A stretch of DNA of 5,839 nt from the IMG/VR virus record IMGVR_UViG_2671180395_000013; one strand, 5' to 3'. A program made the position numbers and the translations under genes. Position 1 is the first letter of the stretch. Each line of letters starts with the position of its first letter. Origin of the DNA: a virus. Its lineage: Duplodnaviria > Heunggongvirae > Uroviricota > Caudoviricetes. Under the pieces are notes generated by a model, which was not told the origin of the DNA, ran no database searches, and worked only from the letters and a program-made list of their open reading frames with translations. This document shows positions 1 to 5,404 of this stretch, piece after piece.

Positions 1-270
1 GGCCACCAGCAGAGGCGGCATTGCCTTTTCGATCGCCGGTAACAGAGCCTGCATTTTTTCAACTGCATCAGGGGTGTCTTTCTCTATCCAGCGGAAAATT
101 TTCTGGGTATTGCGAGCCAGGGCTTCCGGATGGCTGTCGTCGTACAGTTCAGGAAACGTCATACCCAACTCAAAATAAGCCTGGGTTATTCCAGCTGCCG
201 GAACTTTTTCGCCATCAGGACGCGCCCAGGCATTCATCGCCATGCGGATGTGTTCATGCTTGATTTTCAT
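1..270 (-). CDS. YdaT-like (CII-analogue) prophage regulatory protein, N-terminal 90 codons only; gene continues past the window start
   Basis: Minus-strand ATG at 270-268 with a G-run Shine-Dalgarno (complement of 275-280). Translation MKIKHEHIRMAMNAWARPDGEKVPAAGITQAYFELGMTFPELYDDSHPEALARNTQKIFRWIEKDTPDAVEKMQALLPAIEKAMPPLLVA stays open to the window edge. N-terminus and overall pattern resemble Rac YdaT as I recall it (not searched). Sits directly downstream of the cro-like gene, as cII does in lambdoid phages. Confidence 0.7.
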   Translation of the reverse strand, partial: MKIKHEHIRMAMNAWARPDGEKVPAAGITQAYFELGMTFPELYDDSHPEALARNTQKIFRWIEKDTPDAVEKMQALLPAIEKAMPPLLVA

Positions 271-496
271 GAATCCCCCCTTGGTTAGAAGGCGGATTAT
301 GATCAGAATCGGGAATGACAACCGTCGGTATGTGTAACTCATATTTGAGCGCCCCGGCAGTGACTGCCTGAATTAGCAACGCCCATTTCCACGGAACGTC
401 TTCCCCCCACATGCTGACTGTGGTTTTTGACGTTCCTAGAGCGGCGGCTGTTTTAACAACTCCGCCAAAATAGCCTAATACTTCTGATTTTTTCAT
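254..496 (-). CDS. Cro-like HTH DNA-binding protein (YdaS/Cro family), 80 aa
   Basis: ORF-track frame 254..544; preferred start is ATG at 496 with GGAG 6 nt upstream (complement of 503-506). Alternative starts are ATG 508 and TTG 544. Helix-turn-helix segment GGVVKTAAALGTSKTTVSMW. Divergent from the cI-like gene; 3' end overlaps the YdaT-like start by 17 nt. Confidence 0.75.
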   Translation of the reverse strand: MKKSEVLGYFGGVVKTAAALGTSKTTVSMWGEDVPWKWALLIQAVTAGALKYELHIPTVVIPDSDHNPPSNQGGIHENQA

Positions 497-524: not shown

Positions 525-588
525 AGTTTAATAATCAAAACCAAAGAAAGTCAAGAAACAAAACCATCTGTGTTTTAAAATCAAAACA
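525..588. promoter_or_regulatory. OR-like divergent control region: three operator-like sites (526-541, 548-563, 572-587) overlapping PR-like and PRM-like promoters
   Basis: Two 16-bp sites share GTTT-N8-AAAC symmetry and are 14/16 identical (gtttaataatcaaaac at 526-541; gttttaaaatcaaaac at 572-587). A weaker third copy ends in caaaac at 558-563. Spacing of 22-24 bp resembles lambda OR1-3. Minus-strand -35 TTGACT (complement of 548-553) and -10 TAAACT (complement of 525-530) would drive cro. Plus-strand -10 TAAAAT (576-581) lies 6 nt before the cI ATG. Confidence 0.5.
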
Positions 589-1226
589 TGAACAAGCAAA
601 CAATATCTGAACGCATAACCCAACGTATGCATGCGCTAAACTTGAAAGGCAAAGACCTTGTCAATGCCACTGGCGCATCAAAAGGCTCCGTAAGTCAATG
701 GATGAACGGTGGAGGAGCGCCGTCCTCGCGTTACATAAGTTCACTGGCAAAGATATTGAAAGTAAACGAAAATTGGCTTCTTAATGGAGGAGAGTTAAAT
801 ACAGGTGATTCGCTTGATCTATCTTTACCGCCGATAAAAACGGTTCCGCTACTATCACTTCAGCAGGCAGCAAGCTGGAGTGATTATATGAAAAATTCCT
901 CAATAACCTCTTGTGTGCAGCTTGTCGGAGAAATCCCGGCCAATACCTTTGCTGTTGTTCTAGAGAGTGACAGTATGTCGACATCTGGTGGTGGAGTTTC
1001 CATCCCAAATGGTTCAACAGTTTTTGTTGATCCCGATCGAATCGTACAACCAGGAAATATTGTCCTTGCCTTACCCAAAGGGACCACAACGCCTGTCATT
1101 CGCAAACTGGAGATAGAAGGGCCGGATATTCTTTTAGTCCCCACGAATCCTCGCTACCCTTCAATTATGCTGGATGATCTATCTTGCATATTGGGAGTAT
1201 GCTTTAAAATTCAACAAGATATTTAA
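588..1226 (+). CDS. CI-type prophage repressor: N-terminal XRE-family HTH plus C-terminal S24 (LexA-like) peptidase domain, 212 aa
   Basis: HTH segment DLVNATGASKGSVSQWMNG. S24 signature with candidate catalytic Ser129 (LESDSMS) and Lys173 (VIRKLE), about 44 residues apart as in lambda CI. No Shine-Dalgarno before the ATG, consistent with a leaderless PRM-type transcript. Divergent from the cro-like gene. Confidence 0.85.
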   Translation: MNKQTISERITQRMHALNLKGKDLVNATGASKGSVSQWMNGGGAPSSRYISSLAKILKVNENWLLNGGELNTGDSLDLSLPPIKTVPLLSLQQAASWSDYMKNSSITSCVQLVGEIPANTFAVVLESDSMSTSGGGVSIPNGSTVFVDPDRIVQPGNIVLALPKGTTTPVIRKLEIEGPDILLVPTNPRYPSIMLDDLSCILGVCFKIQQDI

Positions 1227-1293: not shown

Positions 1294-1339
1294 GTTTTGA
1301 TAAAAAAACATTGACCTTAAATGTTCGTTTTTCTAAACT
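1294..1339 (+). promoter_or_regulatory. Sigma70-like promoter with operator-like site; candidate repressor-controlled promoter of the downstream operon (dicBp/PL analogue)
   Basis: -35 TTGACC (1311-1316), 17-bp spacer, -10 TAAACT (1334-1339). Directly upstream, gttttgataaaaaaac (1294-1309) matches the reverse complement of the OR site (gttttgattttaaaac) at 13/16. Inverted repeat aacatt/aatgtt brackets the -35. Confidence 0.4.
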
Positions 1340-1518: not shown

Positions 1519-1671
1519 ATGGATACGCTCAATCTTGGCAACAACGAATCTCTGGTATGTGGCGTGTTCCCCAACCAGGACGGTACGTTCACCGCGATGA
1601 CGTATACCAAAAGCAAAACGTTTAAAACTGAAGCTGGCGCGCGTCGCTGGTTAGCCAGAAACACTGACTGA
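1519..1671 (+). CDS. Small hypothetical protein, 50 aa (first gene of the operon; similar size and position to Qin ydfA)
   Basis: ATG 1519 preceded by GAGGT with 5-nt spacing. Translation MDTLNLGNNESLVCGVFPNQDGTFTAMTYTKSKTFKTEAGARRWLARNTD. The ORF track offers a longer in-frame start at ATG 1438 (77 aa, GAGG 9 nt upstream). Stop TGA overlaps the next ORF's ATG (TGATG at 1669-1673). Confidence 0.55.
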   Translation: MDTLNLGNNESLVCGVFPNQDGTFTAMTYTKSKTFKTEAGARRWLARNTD

Positions 1672-2321
1672 TGAGGTTGACGATGGAATTTAAAGATTTA
1701 CCTCCTTCAATCCAGGAGATTGCAGCACACACACTTCGTCATCGTCTGAACGAACTTGAATTGGAATCGGTAACGAAAAAAGACACTGATAATATGGCTC
1801 GTAATGTGCGCGATGCGTTTACCGGATTGTATTTCTGTGCGTCTATAAATAAACACGACTCAGAGAGTGTGGCAAATAAAATTGCAGAAACGACAGCGCA
1901 AAACATCAATACGAAACCAACGGAAGAAGAAATTGATCAGTTTGCTCATGATGCTGGTTTAAAAAACAAGAAAGAAAAATCGCCATATGCGGGGAACATG
2001 TTTGTTTATGACAATCTCATCAGAATTCGTGGCGAAATTCCGGCGGAATACCTGGCAAGAGTCCATCAGGCATTGCTTAAAAATTTGGAAACAGAATTAT
2101 TTGATGGCAACACTAACGGTTTCTTCATGGTATCAGGCCTTGAGAAAGACTGGGATGCAGAAAAACGCTGGAATGTTGCTACATGGTTATTCAGTAACAG
2201 AGCCGCTGCACTGGAAGCTTCGGCATGTATTTGCGGCCTGTTCTTAACAGACCACAAATATAATCTGGATGTGTACAGTTATATTTACGCTGAACACGGT
2301 CCACTCTGGATTGACTGGTAA
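1671..2321 (+). CDS. Hypothetical protein, 216 aa, no recognisable domain
   Basis: Long open frame with enterobacterial codon usage. ATG 1671 overlaps the upstream stop; an alternative ATG at 1683 has GAGG 5 nt upstream (MEFKDL...). No TM segment and no motif I can assign. Confidence 0.7.
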   Translation: MRLTMEFKDLPPSIQEIAAHTLRHRLNELELESVTKKDTDNMARNVRDAFTGLYFCASINKHDSESVANKIAETTAQNINTKPTEEEIDQFAHDAGLKNKKEKSPYAGNMFVYDNLIRIRGEIPAEYLARVHQALLKNLETELFDGNTNGFFMVSGLEKDWDAEKRWNVATWLFSNRAAALEASACICGLFLTDHKYNLDVYSYIYAEHGPLWIDW

Positions 2322-2531
2322 TTATAAGGAAACACCAGCAGGGCCGCGGCGACCAACAGAACGATTAAAATCAATAATGCCATTATAAAGGACATTATTT
2401 AATTTATCGTCGAATGCTGATTCTGTGAGCCTCAACTCTGAATGAGTTTTTAATAACCCTGATTGCCTGAGTTGATTTACCAGGCATTCAATCTGTTTTT
2501 CAATAAGCGGATTTCTTTTTTTGTTTGGCAT
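2322..2531 (-). CDS. Hypothetical small protein, 69 aa, antisense to the operon
   Basis: Minus-strand ATG at 2531 preceded by GGAGGA (complement of 2536-2541). ORF-track frame extends to 2543. Stop codon abuts the 216-aa gene's stop with zero gap. C-terminus (RSVGRRGPAGVSL) looks like read-through of GC-rich non-coding DNA. Confidence 0.3.
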   Translation of the reverse strand: MPNKKRNPLIEKQIECLVNQLRQSGLLKTHSELRLTESAFDDKLNNVLYNGIIDFNRSVGRRGPAGVSL

Positions 2532-2858
2532 TTTATCCTCCATTGAGGTTCTGGGTTAAAAATGGAGACCAACACGCTGTCACGTGTGGTCGTGCGCCGG
2601 ACACGGATAAGAATCCGGTACTGACAGTTTACTGAAAGGATATTTCCCTGAAAAGTCAGTGCATAACGCGAAAGCGTACGGCGAAGCTCTTTCCCTTAGA
2701 AGGCTTGTCGTTAGATTTCTTCGAACGTGCGCTTCCGGTTGTGGCACTCCGCGAAATGGCGCGGCGGTAAGTATGGCGGGGTTATTCCTTCCCCATTGAG
2801 GACACCGGGTTGTCAGGTTGACCATACGCTTAAGTGACAACCCCGCTGCAACGCCCTC

Positions 2859-2933: not shown

Positions 2934-2986
2934 TTTCTGGTGACGTTTGGCGGTATCAGTTTTACTCCGTGGCTGCTCTGCCGCCC
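2934..2986 (+). ncRNA. dicF: DicF-like small regulatory RNA (53 nt)
   Basis: tttctggtgacgtttggcggtatcagttttactccgtggctgctctgccgccc matches the E. coli Qin DicF sRNA as I recall it, with about one substitution. Lies about 175 nt upstream of a dicB-like gene, as in K-12. Ends in a GC stem plus T-run. Confidence 0.75.
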
Positions 2987-2991
2987 TTTTT
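2949..2991 (+). terminator. Intrinsic terminator forming the 3' end of DicF
   Basis: Stem ggcgg(t) 2949-2954 pairs with gccgcc 2980-2985, with an internal helix (cag 2957-2959 / ctg 2973-2975), followed by TTTTT at 2987-2991. Must be leaky, since operon genes continue downstream. Confidence 0.6.
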
Positions 2992-3160
2992 AAAGTGAAT
3001 TTTGTGATGCGGTGAATGCGGCTAAGCGCACGCGGAACAGTTAAAACCAAAAACAGTGTTATGGGTGGATTCTCTGTATCCGGCGTTAATTGTTAACTGG
3101 TTAACGTCACCTGGAGGCACCAGGCACTGCATCACAAAATTCATTGTTGAGGACGCGATA

Positions 3161-3349
3161 ATGGAAACGTTATTACCAAACGTTAATACGTCTGAAGGTT
3201 GTTTTGATATTGGTGTTCTGCTCAGTAACCGGGAGTTTACTGAAGATGCCATTAACATGAGGAAATATGAGCCTTATCTGCTCAATGATAATTCCATACT
3301 TTCCCGAATTGCTCTTCTTGAACTTGGTATTTTCGGAGAACGTCAATGA
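3161..3349 (+). CDS. dicB: DicB-like cell-division inhibitor, 62 aa
   Basis: ATG 3161 with GAGGA 7 nt upstream. N-terminal half METLLPNVNTSEGCFDIGVLLSNREFTEDAIN closely matches recalled K-12 DicB (MKTLLPNVNTSEGCFEIGV...); same 62-aa length. The C-terminal half diverges. Confidence 0.8.
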   Translation: METLLPNVNTSEGCFDIGVLLSNREFTEDAINMRKYEPYLLNDNSILSRIALLELGIFGERQ

Positions 3350-3534
3350 CTTCAGCATTTGCACTGATGATGACGGTTTTTCTTATAACGGGTGAATCAC
3401 AGAATGTGATTACCGGAATTTATGCCAGTAAAGAATCCTGCCTCCAGGCAAGAGACGAGCAAAAAATTTCTGGTGAATGCCTCCCGGTAAAAAAAGTATC
3501 GCTGTACCTGAATAACGAAACACCGGCTGGATAA
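3346..3534 (+). CDS. ydfD: YdfD-like small membrane (lysis-associated) protein, 62 aa
   Basis: ATGA start/stop overlap with dicB-like gene; GGAGA 6 nt upstream. Hydrophobic N-terminus MTSAFALMMTVFLITG followed by a polar domain with two Cys. Size and position match Qin ydfD. Confidence 0.65.
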   Translation: MTSAFALMMTVFLITGESQNVITGIYASKESCLQARDEQKISGECLPVKKVSLYLNNETPAG

Positions 3535-3626: not shown

Positions 3627-4871
3627 ATGAGCACTGATAAAGAAGAATTTGCGCTATATTGCGAAGCAAAAAATGACAAAGTCAGAAAACGTCTGGGAAT
3701 TAAAGGTGGTTTTTACTGGACTACAGCAAAAAAATTATCTGTTGCCATCTCCCGCTGCATTACCGCAATGGATGACAACGATTATGATGAAGACGACTTT
3801 AAAAAACCCGTTCGCGTCCATTTACCCGTTGTGAATGACCTTCCACCTGAAGGCGTGTTTGATACCGAATTCTGCAACCGATACGAAAAAGGCGGGGAAG
3901 ATGGCATTACAATGGTATTTATCGCGCCCTCTCCCTCCGTGCAGGAGAAACCAGCCAGTACTGACAATACCAACGTCAACGGCGAAGACATGACGGAGAT
4001 TGAGGAGAATATGCTCCTGCCGGTTTCTGGTCAGGAGCTGCCCATTCGCTGGCTTGCGCAACACGGCAGCGAAAAACCAGTAACGCACGTTGCACGGGAA
4101 GAACTTCAGGCATTACATATAGCACGGGCGGAAGAACTGCCGGCTGTTACTGCCTTGGCCATTTCTCACAAAACAAAGCTGCTCGACCCGCTGGAGATTC
4201 GCGACCTTCACAAACTGGTACGCGACACTGACAAAGTTTTCCCTAATCCCGGTAATTCAGACCTGGGACTGATAACTGCTTTTTTCGAGGCATACCTGGA
4301 CGCTGACTACACTGATCGGGGTCTGCTGACAAAAGAGTGGATGAAAGGAAATCGTGTTTCGCGTATCACCCGTACGGCTTCCGGTGCAAATGCCGGTGGC
4401 GGGAACAAAACCGATCGCAATCCGAATTTAGTACACACCTTCGATACGCTGGATGTGGAGATTGCAGCAGCCACACTTCCGATGGATTTTAATATTTATG
4501 AAATTCCGGGCAGCGTTTATCGTCGCGCAAAAGAAATCGTCCTGAAAAGAGAAAGTCCGTTCAAAGAATGGTCCGCAGCACTTCGCGCAACCCCGGGTAT
4601 TCTGGACTATTCCCGCGCCGCTATTTTTGCACTTATCCGGAGCGCTCACCCTGAGTTTTATCACTACCCGGGACGCCTTCAGGGGTATATCAACGCCTAC
4701 TTAACGGAGACTGATCACGAGAACCCCAGCAAGGAAACTCTCACTGCTGCACGACATACACCGGAAAAAGATATCCTGGAAGAAGTTAACCGCGAACTGT
4801 CTGCTAAGCAGGAAACAGAAGAAGAAAATGATGAAGAAAAACCGCAACCATCTTGCGCAATGGCAGAATGA
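3627..4871 (+). CDS. Hypothetical protein, 414 aa, acidic C-terminal tail (position of Qin ydfE)
   Basis: ATG 3627 with GAGG 7 nt upstream. Long open frame with a Gly-rich loop (SGANAGGGNKT) and an acidic tail (ETEEENDEEKPQPS). No domain I can assign. 3' end overlaps the integrase remnant frame. Confidence 0.75.
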   Translation: MSTDKEEFALYCEAKNDKVRKRLGIKGGFYWTTAKKLSVAISRCITAMDDNDYDEDDFKKPVRVHLPVVNDLPPEGVFDTEFCNRYEKGGEDGITMVFIAPSPSVQEKPASTDNTNVNGEDMTEIEENMLLPVSGQELPIRWLAQHGSEKPVTHVAREELQALHIARAEELPAVTALAISHKTKLLDPLEIRDLHKLVRDTDKVFPNPGNSDLGLITAFFEAYLDADYTDRGLLTKEWMKGNRVSRITRTASGANAGGGNKTDRNPNLVHTFDTLDVEIAAATLPMDFNIYEIPGSVYRRAKEIVLKRESPFKEWSAALRATPGILDYSRAAIFALIRSAHPEFYHYPGRLQGYINAYLTETDHENPSKETLTAARHTPEKDILEEVNRELSAKQETEEENDEEKPQPSCAMAE

Positions 4872-5404
4872 TAATCAGAAGAAATCTGGCAAAAGACCGT
4901 TTTACAGTACCAAAAACACAGGCGGGAACCAATCGTGTGATTCACCTTATTAAGCCCGCAATCGACGCTCTCCGGAGTCAGATGGCACTAACGAGACTGA
5001 GCAAAGAGCATATCATCGATGTTCACCTCAGAGAATTCGGCAGAACAGAGAAACAAAAATGTACCTTTGTTTTTCAACCTGAAGTGTCAGCGAAAGTAAA
5101 AAATTATGGCGACCATTTTACCGTTGACTCAATAAGGCAGATGTGGGACGCAGCGGTAAAGCGTGCCGGAATCCGCCATCGCAAATCGTATCAGTCGAGA
5201 CACACTTATGCCTGCTGGTCGTTAACAGCAGGAGCTAACCCGGCATTCATTGCAAACCAGATGGGCCATGCAGATGCGCAAATGGTGTTTCAGGTGTACG
5301 GGAAATGGATGTCAGAAAATAATAATGCGCAGGTAACGCTGTTAAATACACAGTTAAGCGAGTTTGCCCCAACCATGCCCCATAACGAAGCGATGAAAAG
5401 TTAA
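4853..5404 (+). pseudogene. Tyrosine recombinase (phage integrase) C-terminal catalytic-domain remnant; N-terminal and core-binding domains absent
   Basis: Frame opens after TGA 4832-4834; first start-like codon is TTG 4853. Contains a beta-hairpin Lys region (TVPKTQAGTNRVIHL), box II-like SRHTYACW, GHAD, and candidate catalytic Tyr in VYGKWM. Only about 183 aa against roughly 350-400 for intact integrases. No upstream frame encodes the N-terminal domains. Confidence 0.7.

Follow-up and report, generated by a model that had tools for sequence, protein, structure and literature searches.

A cassette-borne orphan gene and its likely convergent partner in the dicBF-type early operon of a Qin-like prophage of Escherichia coli O157:H7

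The dicBF operon of the Qin prophage in Escherichia coli K-12 (ydfA-ydfB-ydfC-dicF-dicB-ydfD-ydfE, repressed by DicA) is a standard model for effects of cryptic prophages on host division, metabolism and phage resistance. Its polycistronic ydfABC-dicF-dicB RNA starts at the promoter dicBp, upstream of ydfA (PMC10448788), and the YdfA/DUF1391 family is without known function (PMC5069750); within the terms searched, the dicBF papers treat ydfABC as unknown and mention no antisense promoter. Here we analysed a stretch of viral DNA of 5,839 nucleotides (nt) (IMG/VR record IMGVR_UViG_2671180395_000013; referred to as a whole as the window), which is 100% identical to E. coli O157:H7 chromosomes and comes from a defective Qin-like lambdoid prophage, of which it spans the immunity and early-left functions. 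A preliminary description had singled out the first two open reading frames (ORFs) of its repressor-controlled operon, of 50 and 216 amino acids (aa), as an uncharacterised gene pair, and both ORFs are indeed present at 1519-1671 and 1671-2321. The unit of interest is a different one, consisting of the larger ORF with a corrected start (212 aa), a convergent 69-aa gene and a conserved antisense leader, and not of ydfA and the 216-aa ORF.

The window and Qin share the order of repressor, operator/promoter, ydfA, dicF, dicB and ydfD-like gene, the latter being followed in both by a recE-like gene that is truncated in the window, and the first cistron of the window agrees with K-12 Qin YdfA in its full-length hidden Markov model (HMM) match and position, with no substantive difference. 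The two operons differ in their repressors, a 212-aa protein with helix-turn-helix (HTH) and S24 domains in the window and the 135-aa DicA in Qin, and in the slot behind ydfA, where the 212-aa gene and its convergent 69-aa neighbour take the place of ydfB-ydfC in the window. DNA homology to K-12 covers 1481-1662 (ydfA), breaks off cleanly and resumes at 2591; K-12 fills this gap with ydfB-ydfC, the content that the preliminary description had correctly given for this slot, and the minus-strand ORF is absent there. Other strains carry ydfA-ydfB, ydfA-ydfB-ydfC or a ydfC-like gene in series with the 212-aa gene. ydfB, ydfC and the 212-aa gene are separate cassettes strung together in varying combinations, and the earlier alternative that the window holds different cargo from K-12 is borne out by the strains in which the 212-aa gene follows intact ydfB and ydfC. 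The features of the unit are given below, with ratios of nonsynonymous to synonymous substitution (dN/dS) and the predicted local distance difference test (pLDDT) where they apply.

1519-1671, plus strand: ydfA homologue, 50 aa, first cistron (Pfam PF07151, PHROG 751, RefSeq 'DUF1391 family protein')
1683-2321, plus strand: 212-aa orphan protein (WP_000394548.1, PHROG 2151; the earlier 216-aa ORF with corrected start), dN/dS 0.19-0.33 across comparisons of E. coli and Salmonella L007 copies
1683-1847, plus strand: N-terminal module, residues 1-55 (MEFKDLP...NVRDAFTGLY), predicted two-helix hairpin, dN/dS 0.3-0.7
1848-1973, plus strand: polar linker, residues 56-97, under weak constraint and predicted to be disordered (pLDDT 32-44), dN/dS mostly 0.33-0.64, 1.18 in one pair
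1974-2318, plus strand: C-terminal domain (C-domain), residues 98-212, predicted ferredoxin-like, beta-beta-alpha-beta-beta-alpha-beta, dN/dS 0.13-0.22
2322-2531, minus strand: convergent 69-aa basic protein (WP_001133037.1, PHROG 4274, C-terminal GRRGPAGVxL), annotated in RefSeq, dN/dS 0.19-0.28
2532-2621, minus strand: structured leader of the minus-strand gene, about 90 nt, with hairpins 1 and 2 and an anti-Shine-Dalgarno/Shine-Dalgarno (anti-SD/SD) pairing
2618-2597, minus strand: hairpin 1, with five G-C/A-U stem pairs invariant across 16 variants
2591-2567, minus strand: hairpin 2, fixed in position, its stem built in three or four entirely different sequences
2568-2562 and 2543-2537, minus strand: anti-SD TCTCCAT pairing with SD ATGGAGG, kept across variants as CUCC(A/U) with (A/U)GGAG
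2626-2654, minus strand: putative promoter (-35 TTTTCA at 2654-2649, 17-nt spacer, -10 TAAACT at 2631-2626)

The 212-aa gene most likely starts at ATG 1683, a choice favoured by the PHROG alignment, the RefSeq annotation, the N-termini of homologues and a comparison of upstream sequences. The full-length match to PHROG 2151 (E = 1.9e-147) aligns residues 5-216 of the 216-aa ORF with profile positions 1-212 of 212, RefSeq annotates 1683-2321 as the hypothetical protein WP_000394548.1, and 23 of 24 aligned homologues begin with MEFKDLP. The upstream ATG is missing wherever the preceding gene is other than ydfA (L002 after ydfB, L005 after ydfC, and Salmonella L007), and an SD-like element (GAGG, GGGG or GAGC) 5-6 nt before MEFKDLP is kept in every one of the five genomic contexts compared; in the window, where 11 nt separate ydfA from the 212-aa gene, it lies at 1674-1677. 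The TGATG overlap at 1669-1673 that had been taken for translational coupling does exist, but such coupling would require an ATG that is probably unused as a start, and as a conserved start the overlap was rejected on the grounds of the upstream comparison.

In the 212-aa protein, a loose linker joins the helical N-terminal module, which is shared with other proteins, to a ferredoxin-like C-domain that occurs in Escherichia and Salmonella prophages only. AlphaFold2 gave a poor model from 24 close homologues (pLDDT 62.8) and a usable C-domain from a 65-sequence alignment, with N-terminal helices at residues 8-24 and 32-55 (pLDDT about 65-70), a low-confidence linker stretch at residues 50-99 and values mostly of 75-93 in the C-domain, which carries the motifs NMFVYDNLIRIxGxIP, FDGxxNGxF and WxFSxxxAAxEA. 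The strength of selection tracks this three-part architecture. The best fold matches of the C-domain are ACT-type regulatory domains, which places it near the ACT/ferredoxin-like alpha+beta sandwich domains. A true ACT domain would be expected to match a Pfam ACT-family HMM and to adopt a ligand-binding beta-alpha-beta-beta-alpha-beta fold, a combination that the C-domain does not show.

An HMM search of 1.84 billion cluster representatives with the 212-aa protein returned 54 matches, none of them a distant annotated relative; about 40 cover only its first 35-93 residues and are short proteins (42-201 aa) with unrelated C-termini, and two (P0141 and P0153) cover the C-terminal part only. PHROGs 1363, 9419, 6937 and 33007 match residues 5-79 only. 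Homologues of the 212-aa protein fall into about 150 clusters at 90% identity, come from Escherichia or Salmonella wherever named, and in some cases bear the name 'Ybl81'. Matches of the C-domain profile were confined to proteins of the same two genera, and a scan of one genome per GTDB species yielded no C-domain relatives. Neither the 212-aa and 69-aa proteins nor their Salmonella homologues had a functional match in Pfam (E up to 10), NCBIfam or PADLOC 2.0, where neither protein matched a known anti-phage defence system, and PDB sequence searches with single sequences and with C-domain and 69-aa-family profiles gave only noise (E of at least 0.28). The papers searched mention neither a function for DUF1391 nor the name Ybl81, and neither PHROG 2151 nor either of the two WP accessions. 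Profile HMM and structure-prediction searches, both proposed in the preliminary description, thus left the large protein without a match to any well-characterised family; its statement that both ORFs are uncharacterised stands for the 216-aa ORF, which has no assignable domain, but not for the 50-aa ORF, a member of the known YdfA/DUF1391 family. Both ORFs are under purifying selection, which marks them as more than chance ORFs.

The relative P0141, a Salmonella-type protein of 286 aa encoded at 5001-5861 in L175, L176 and L177, has an HTH domain of the XRE family inserted in the linker, 41% identical to the DNA-binding domain of the window repressor, and was found on four contigs at two integration sites. 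Its gene is followed by a convergent 64-aa gene, as in other relatives.

The 69-aa gene, absent from the preliminary description, is the likely partner of the 212-aa protein. Their stop codons abut directly, and the predicted proteins are basic (isoelectric point (pI) 9.7, 69 aa) and acidic (pI 5.2, 212 aa), respectively. Among 5426 complete E. coli genomes, C-domain DNA was found in 600 genomes at 751 places and the 69-aa gene in 597 genomes at 744 places; in 594 of these 597, a single place covers at least 80% of the joint C-domain/69-aa query, a count that mainly reflects clonal descent since most E. coli copies are near-identical. Roughly 11% of complete E. coli genomes contain the pair, and the carriers sampled are mostly O157, O145, O111, O103 or O121 strains. 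Adjacency in Salmonella is the stronger evidence for pairing. The C-domain of the Salmonella subfamily is only about 30% identical, its N-terminal region and upstream genes differ from those of E. coli, and the element runs from integrase through a C-type repressor and Cox to the C-domain protein. A convergent, 3'-overlapping homologue of 64-69 aa, about 50% identical to the 69-aa protein, accompanies it in the Cox-type elements sampled, and this pairing is kept at several integration sites and in three sequence variants. The frames are intact in most of 80 viral contigs and annotated in the sampled E. coli genomes. Homologues of the 69-aa protein were absent from a deposited-phage collection. 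The ORFs named in the preliminary description do not make a functional pair: ydfA combines freely with various other cistrons across prophages, and it is the convergent 69-aa gene that accompanies the 212-aa gene.

An equivalent arrangement is seen for other proteins that share the N-terminal module, each of whose genes overlaps a convergent ORF by 10-40 nt at the 3' end:

N-terminal-module protein of 135 aa, convergent ORF of 77 aa
N-terminal-module protein of 133 aa, convergent ORF of 92 aa
N-terminal-module protein of 106 aa, convergent ORF of 91 aa
N-terminal-module protein of 124 aa, convergent ORF of 73 aa, or none

A PHROG family of its own exists for three of the four convergent ORFs and additionally for a 162-172-aa alternative. 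The 212-aa gene lies in an exchangeable cassette, whose left border is the sequence coding for the N-terminal module and whose right border is the conserved minus-strand leader, and the C-terminal halves and convergent ORFs vary between these borders. Both borders are conserved and both are expression signals, which accounts for the joint exchange of C-terminal halves and convergent ORFs. The 162-172-aa ORF (PHROG 1244), which lies on the minus strand at 4013-4501 in L010, 5526-6044 in L080, 4478-4996 in L086 and 5526-6044 in L090, has a coiled-coil N-terminus and a zinc-ribbon-like C-terminus (CxxC...CxxC).

The right border is formed by one leader that precedes the 69-aa gene and, in other prophages, at least six unrelated small ORFs, among them the convergent ORFs listed above, the 162-172-aa alternative and a 64-aa ORF in Salmonella L007. 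Its two hairpins and the anti-SD/SD pairing recur in 16 variants in front of unrelated ORFs. The window copy folds more stably on the minus strand (z = -2.6) than on the plus strand (z = -0.5), and individual folds of eleven variants placed both hairpins at the same positions in all, with the SD region base-paired in most. Across the leader alignment, 85.5% of cells pair compared with 31-49% for slid partners, compensatory cells number 24 compared with 1-11 in slid controls, and the observed covariation score was reached by none of 500 shuffles, the structure having been derived from the tested sequences, to which three or four independent lineages contribute. The MAFFT alignment leaves hairpin 2 partly out of register between variants, and the pair counts are therefore a lower bound for its helix; several G-U pairs are compatible with the minus-strand RNA only. 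Most E. coli copies preserve the -10 element of the putative promoter together with the stretch between it and hairpin 1, and a transcript from this promoter would start at the foot of hairpin 1. The hairpin-1 part alone was found at 6319 places in 3531 of the 5426 E. coli genomes, with annotation on none of the matches listed. In the Qin prophage of K-12 (L003, about 4133-4200, corresponding by homology to 2591-2650 of the window) both hairpins are kept with no downstream ORF, and any leader transcript there would run antisense into ydfC. No description of a layout with a conserved leader and antisense cargo was found in the literature searched.

Salmonella L007 holds a second leader copy in front of the unrelated 64-aa ORF (MSEQELKL...; 7306-7500, minus strand). 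Further downstream, at 9064-10578, three tandem modules of isrK and C4 antisense RNA are interleaved with Phage_ASH genes.

Beyond the protein anatomy, the purifying selection, the cassette exchange and the conserved side-by-side position of the C-domain and 69-aa families established above, we propose, with a probability of roughly 0.4, that the 212-aa and 69-aa genes form a two-gene unit in which a repressor-controlled early protein faces a reciprocally expressed convergent partner. In a lysogen, the repressor would silence the plus-strand operon, while the 69-aa gene would be transcribed from its own putative promoter through a 5' hairpin leader able to mask the ribosome-binding site. Upon derepression, the early transcript would yield YdfA and the 212-aa protein and would then run antisense through the 69-aa gene towards dicF, dicB and the ydfD-like gene, and polymerase collision together with RNA duplex formation would shut off the 69-aa gene. 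More speculatively, the N-terminal module could act as a common docking or oligomerisation handle, and the C-domain could confer specificity, either binding or antagonising the 69-aa protein or being antagonised by it.

Several observations weigh against this proposal. No experiment or homology assigns a function to either protein, the AlphaFold2 model is only moderately confident (mean pLDDT 65.5), and the minus-strand promoter is a weak consensus match made by eye (8 of 12 positions), below the scanner threshold. Neither gene is strictly dependent on the other. In L010, L080, L086 and L090 a 211-aa gene is intact beside a 69-aa gene with an internal deletion of about 160 nt, and the 162-172-aa convergent gene lies nearby instead; the 69-aa frame is broken in two Salmonella assemblies (L008 and L009). 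Conversely, the large gene is frameshifted beside an intact 69-aa gene in the viral contigs L065 (about 4810, near residue 38), L067 (about 3040) and L074 (about 5000), the latter two at an A-rich run near residue 96; these frameshifts may be real inactivation or homopolymer sequencing errors. N-terminal-module proteins of Shiga toxin (Stx) phages have no annotated convergent partner, and the co-variation of C-termini and convergent ORFs could follow merely from recombination in the conserved flanks.

A broader form of the proposal, which we regard as rather doubtful, is that the locus stands for a family of modular cassettes not described before, with roles in conflict or regulation, in the early operons of enterobacterial prophages, made up of a shared handle of about 55 aa, swappable effectors, cognate convergent small proteins and an SD-masking leader. 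If true, derepression of the prophage would switch production over from the small protein to the effector. The promoter-proximal slot of the dicBF operon is in any case a site of cassette exchange with two conserved borders, one of which is an unannotated antisense leader present in about two thirds of E. coli genomes, K-12 Qin included. If this leader is active, the operon yields pairs of sense and antisense RNA, which could bear on the reported finding, as yet without explanation, that the upstream portion of the dicBF transcript depends on RNase III (PMC10448788). The payoff would be modest if the genes are ordinary accessory cargo and considerable if the modular effector/partner reading is true.

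Ordinary cargo is the alternative that fares best, and we consider it possible though somewhat unlikely: the two genes would be independent 'moron'-like insertions whose adjacency is kept by homologous recombination in the conserved flanks and by inheritance as a block. Such independence suits the finding of either gene intact beside a damaged or replaced partner, the leader that serves many unrelated ORFs and whose second copy in L007 lies far from any C-domain gene, the Stx-phage proteins without an annotated partner, and the free mosaicism of the upstream cistrons. It is harder to reconcile with an adjacency that outlasts divergence to about 30% identity in the C-domain and about 50% in the small protein, and that holds in two prophage types with different left flanks, where mosaicism should split unrelated neighbours; the near-complete co-occurrence of the two genes in E. 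coli carriers (594 of 597) also speaks for a unit.

Alternatively, but with low probability, the 212-aa protein may be a regulator associated with the immunity switch, that is an anti-repressor, co-regulator or read-through factor whose ferredoxin/ACT-like domain senses or oligomerises. Its gene always lies one or two cistrons past the switch (repressor and ydfA in E. coli, Cox in Salmonella), a natural variant, P0141, carries an HTH similar to that of the window repressor, and the predicted fold comes closest to ACT-type regulatory domains. Furthermore, the early transcript must pass the convergent gene and the dicF terminator to reach dicB. Resemblance to a lambda N-type antiterminator, whose gene usually comes first in the lambda early-left operon, was not found: there was no N-family Pfam match, nut sites with their boxB-type hairpin having had no dedicated search, and an arginine-rich motif is present neither in YdfA, which begins MDTLNLGNNESLV, nor in the 212-aa protein, which begins MEFKDLPPSIQ.

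Quite unlikely is a classical toxin-antitoxin or abortive-infection module in which one of the proteins is a toxin and which stabilises the prophage or excludes phages. A small, prophage-borne module of two genes with acidic and basic products would fit, as would surrounding prophages rich in such modules (relBE, hok, YdaT), and convergent 3' ends are known from type I systems of Bacillus prophages, a likeness that we count in its favour. Against it, neither protein matched any of the Pfam, NCBIfam and PADLOC models for toxins, antitoxins and defence systems, and a type II system is at odds with genes that are convergent with abutting stops rather than co-directional and co-transcribed. The large gene moreover lies within a repressed operon, and since each gene is found intact beside a damaged or lost partner, the logic of addiction misfits in either direction.

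It is very improbable that either ORF, or both, survives only as a non-functional remnant of a prophage in decay; the prophage is defective and a few copies are frameshifted, but dN/dS is well below 1 for both the C-domain and the 69-aa gene, the start is shared by nearly all aligned homologues, and the frames are intact in most viral contigs. The suggestion of the preliminary description that the 216-aa ORF preserves intact a gene that has decayed into ydfB/ydfC in K-12 has the shared operon slot in its favour and is hardly credible, being refuted by the DNA alignment, in which homology stops cleanly at 1662/2591 with unrelated ydfB-ydfC between, by the intact ydfB/ydfC found upstream of the 212-aa gene elsewhere, and by the lack of any resemblance of YdfB or YdfC to the 212-aa protein as judged by eye, with no formal alignment.

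The 50-aa ORF is YdfA (DUF1391), the near-ubiquitous first cistron of such operons. It matches PF07151 with 103.8 bits (cut-off 27.3; E = 3.6e-30), residues 2-48 covering profile positions 1-47 of 48, and its DNA is 88% identical to K-12 ydfA; ydfA-like DNA was found in about 4400 of the 5426 complete E. coli genomes. Its position as first cistron after the prophage repressor and upstream of dicF/dicB is the one typical of DUF1391. An in-frame ATG 27 codons upstream (1438-1671) would lengthen YdfA to 77 aa, and the PHROG 751 profile has 19 extra N-terminal positions, some database members being annotated with a longer start; the 50-aa form is backed by Pfam and RefSeq.

The remaining features of the window belong to its immunity region and early-left operon:

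254-496, minus strand: P22-Cro-like gene
571-588, cro/repressor intergenic region: operator-like palindrome TGTTTTAAAATCAAAACA, an exact TGTTTT-N6-AAAACA match
588-1226, plus strand: cI/LexA-type repressor, 212 aa (Peptidase_S24, Pfam E = 8e-13; HTH_3, E = 2e-4)
1293-1310: second copy of the operator palindrome, abutting the -35 element of the operon promoter
1311-1339, plus strand: sigma-70-like promoter of the early-left (dicBF-type) operon (-35 TTGACC at 1311-1316, 17-nt spacer, -10 TAAACT at 1334-1339)
2935-2986, plus strand: DicF small RNA and terminator (Rfam RF00039, 75 bits; terminator-like site at 2969-2984)
3161-3349, plus strand: dicB (Pfam E = 6e-37)
3346-3534, plus strand: ydfD-like DUF1482 gene (Pfam E = 3e-15)
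3627-4871: RecE-type exonuclease, N-terminal 414 aa only (profile positions 1-409 of 877)
4853-5404: integrase, C-terminal fragment

A DinI-like gene is also present, and the truncated recE and fragmentary integrase mark the prophage as defective. The preliminary description had placed the two ORFs directly after a repressor and behind an operator-bearing promoter, in an operon with the host-directed functions DicF, DicB and a YdfD-like protein; the operon position and the downstream genes are confirmed, and the operator-bearing promoter is supported. The palindrome at 571-588 pairs as an inverted repeat with 1292-1310, and exact TGTTTT-N6-AAAACA matches occur twice in the real window and in none of 200 shuffled windows, a figure that is descriptive and no formal test, the pattern having been derived from the window itself. 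The operon promoter agrees with the consensus at 9 of 12 positions, a consensus match only, and corresponds in position to dicBp of K-12. The operon runs in the order ydfA, 212-aa gene, dicF, dicB, ydfD-like gene and truncated recE, and no terminator-like site was detected between the promoter and dicF in a scan of the window. Since the K-12 transcript extends from ydfA to dicB, the window operon is likely, by homology, to be co-transcribed through dicF and dicB in the same way.

The repressor ORF is uninterrupted in the window, and its N-terminus resembles DicA (NCBIfam E = 1e-10, below cut-off). On identical DNA, RefSeq annotates the last 113 aa alone ('LexA family protein'), and the DNA-binding half is probably under-called there. 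A run of 50 N at 2859-2908 is flanked by an exact 15-nt duplication (CGCTGCAACGCCCTC) at 2844-2858 and 2909-2923; as the complete O157:H7 genome has a single copy of CGCTGCAACGCCCTC at this site and no extra sequence, the run is an assembly or scaffolding join and not biology. A 19-nt inverted repeat (2996-3014 and 3125-3143; 95% complementary, 110 nt apart) brackets the dicF-dicB spacer ahead of the dicB start, and a sub-threshold Rfam match to STnc100 was obtained at 2984-3193 (34.7 bits; gathering score 47).

Viewed against other known systems, the locus comes closest in layout, and in layout only, to the operons of pore-forming colicins, in which a colicin gene under SOS-type repression is accompanied by an immunity gene on the opposite strand and by a downstream lysis gene in the same transcript. 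The window would likewise combine a repressor-controlled gene, a small convergent gene with its own putative promoter and read-through of this small gene to lethal or lysis functions downstream (DicB, YdfD-like), the promoters on both strands being consensus matches. It differs in that its proteins have no sequence or fold similarity to colicin domains or immunity proteins and show no sign of export, and in that the 69-aa protein is soluble and basic, not a membrane protein, and loss of the partner is tolerated.

Polymorphic toxin systems (CdiA-CT/CdiI, Rhs) combine a conserved N-terminal part and swappable C-termini with a small neighbouring gene, and the window family shares with them the conserved N-terminus, the unrelated, exchangeable C-termini and a small neighbour that changes with the C-terminus. 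Unlike these, the window-family proteins measure 100-220 aa, are cytoplasmic by composition and have no toxin or secretion/trafficking Pfam domain, while the neighbouring gene is convergent and the match between C-terminus and partner is not strict. Finally, lambdoid early-left operons carry accessory ('moron') genes and conserved boundary sequences, and the cassette agrees with these in location, mosaicism, narrow host range and an independent, here putative, promoter. It departs from them in that one conserved structured leader would provide a common expression platform for many different antisense cargo ORFs.

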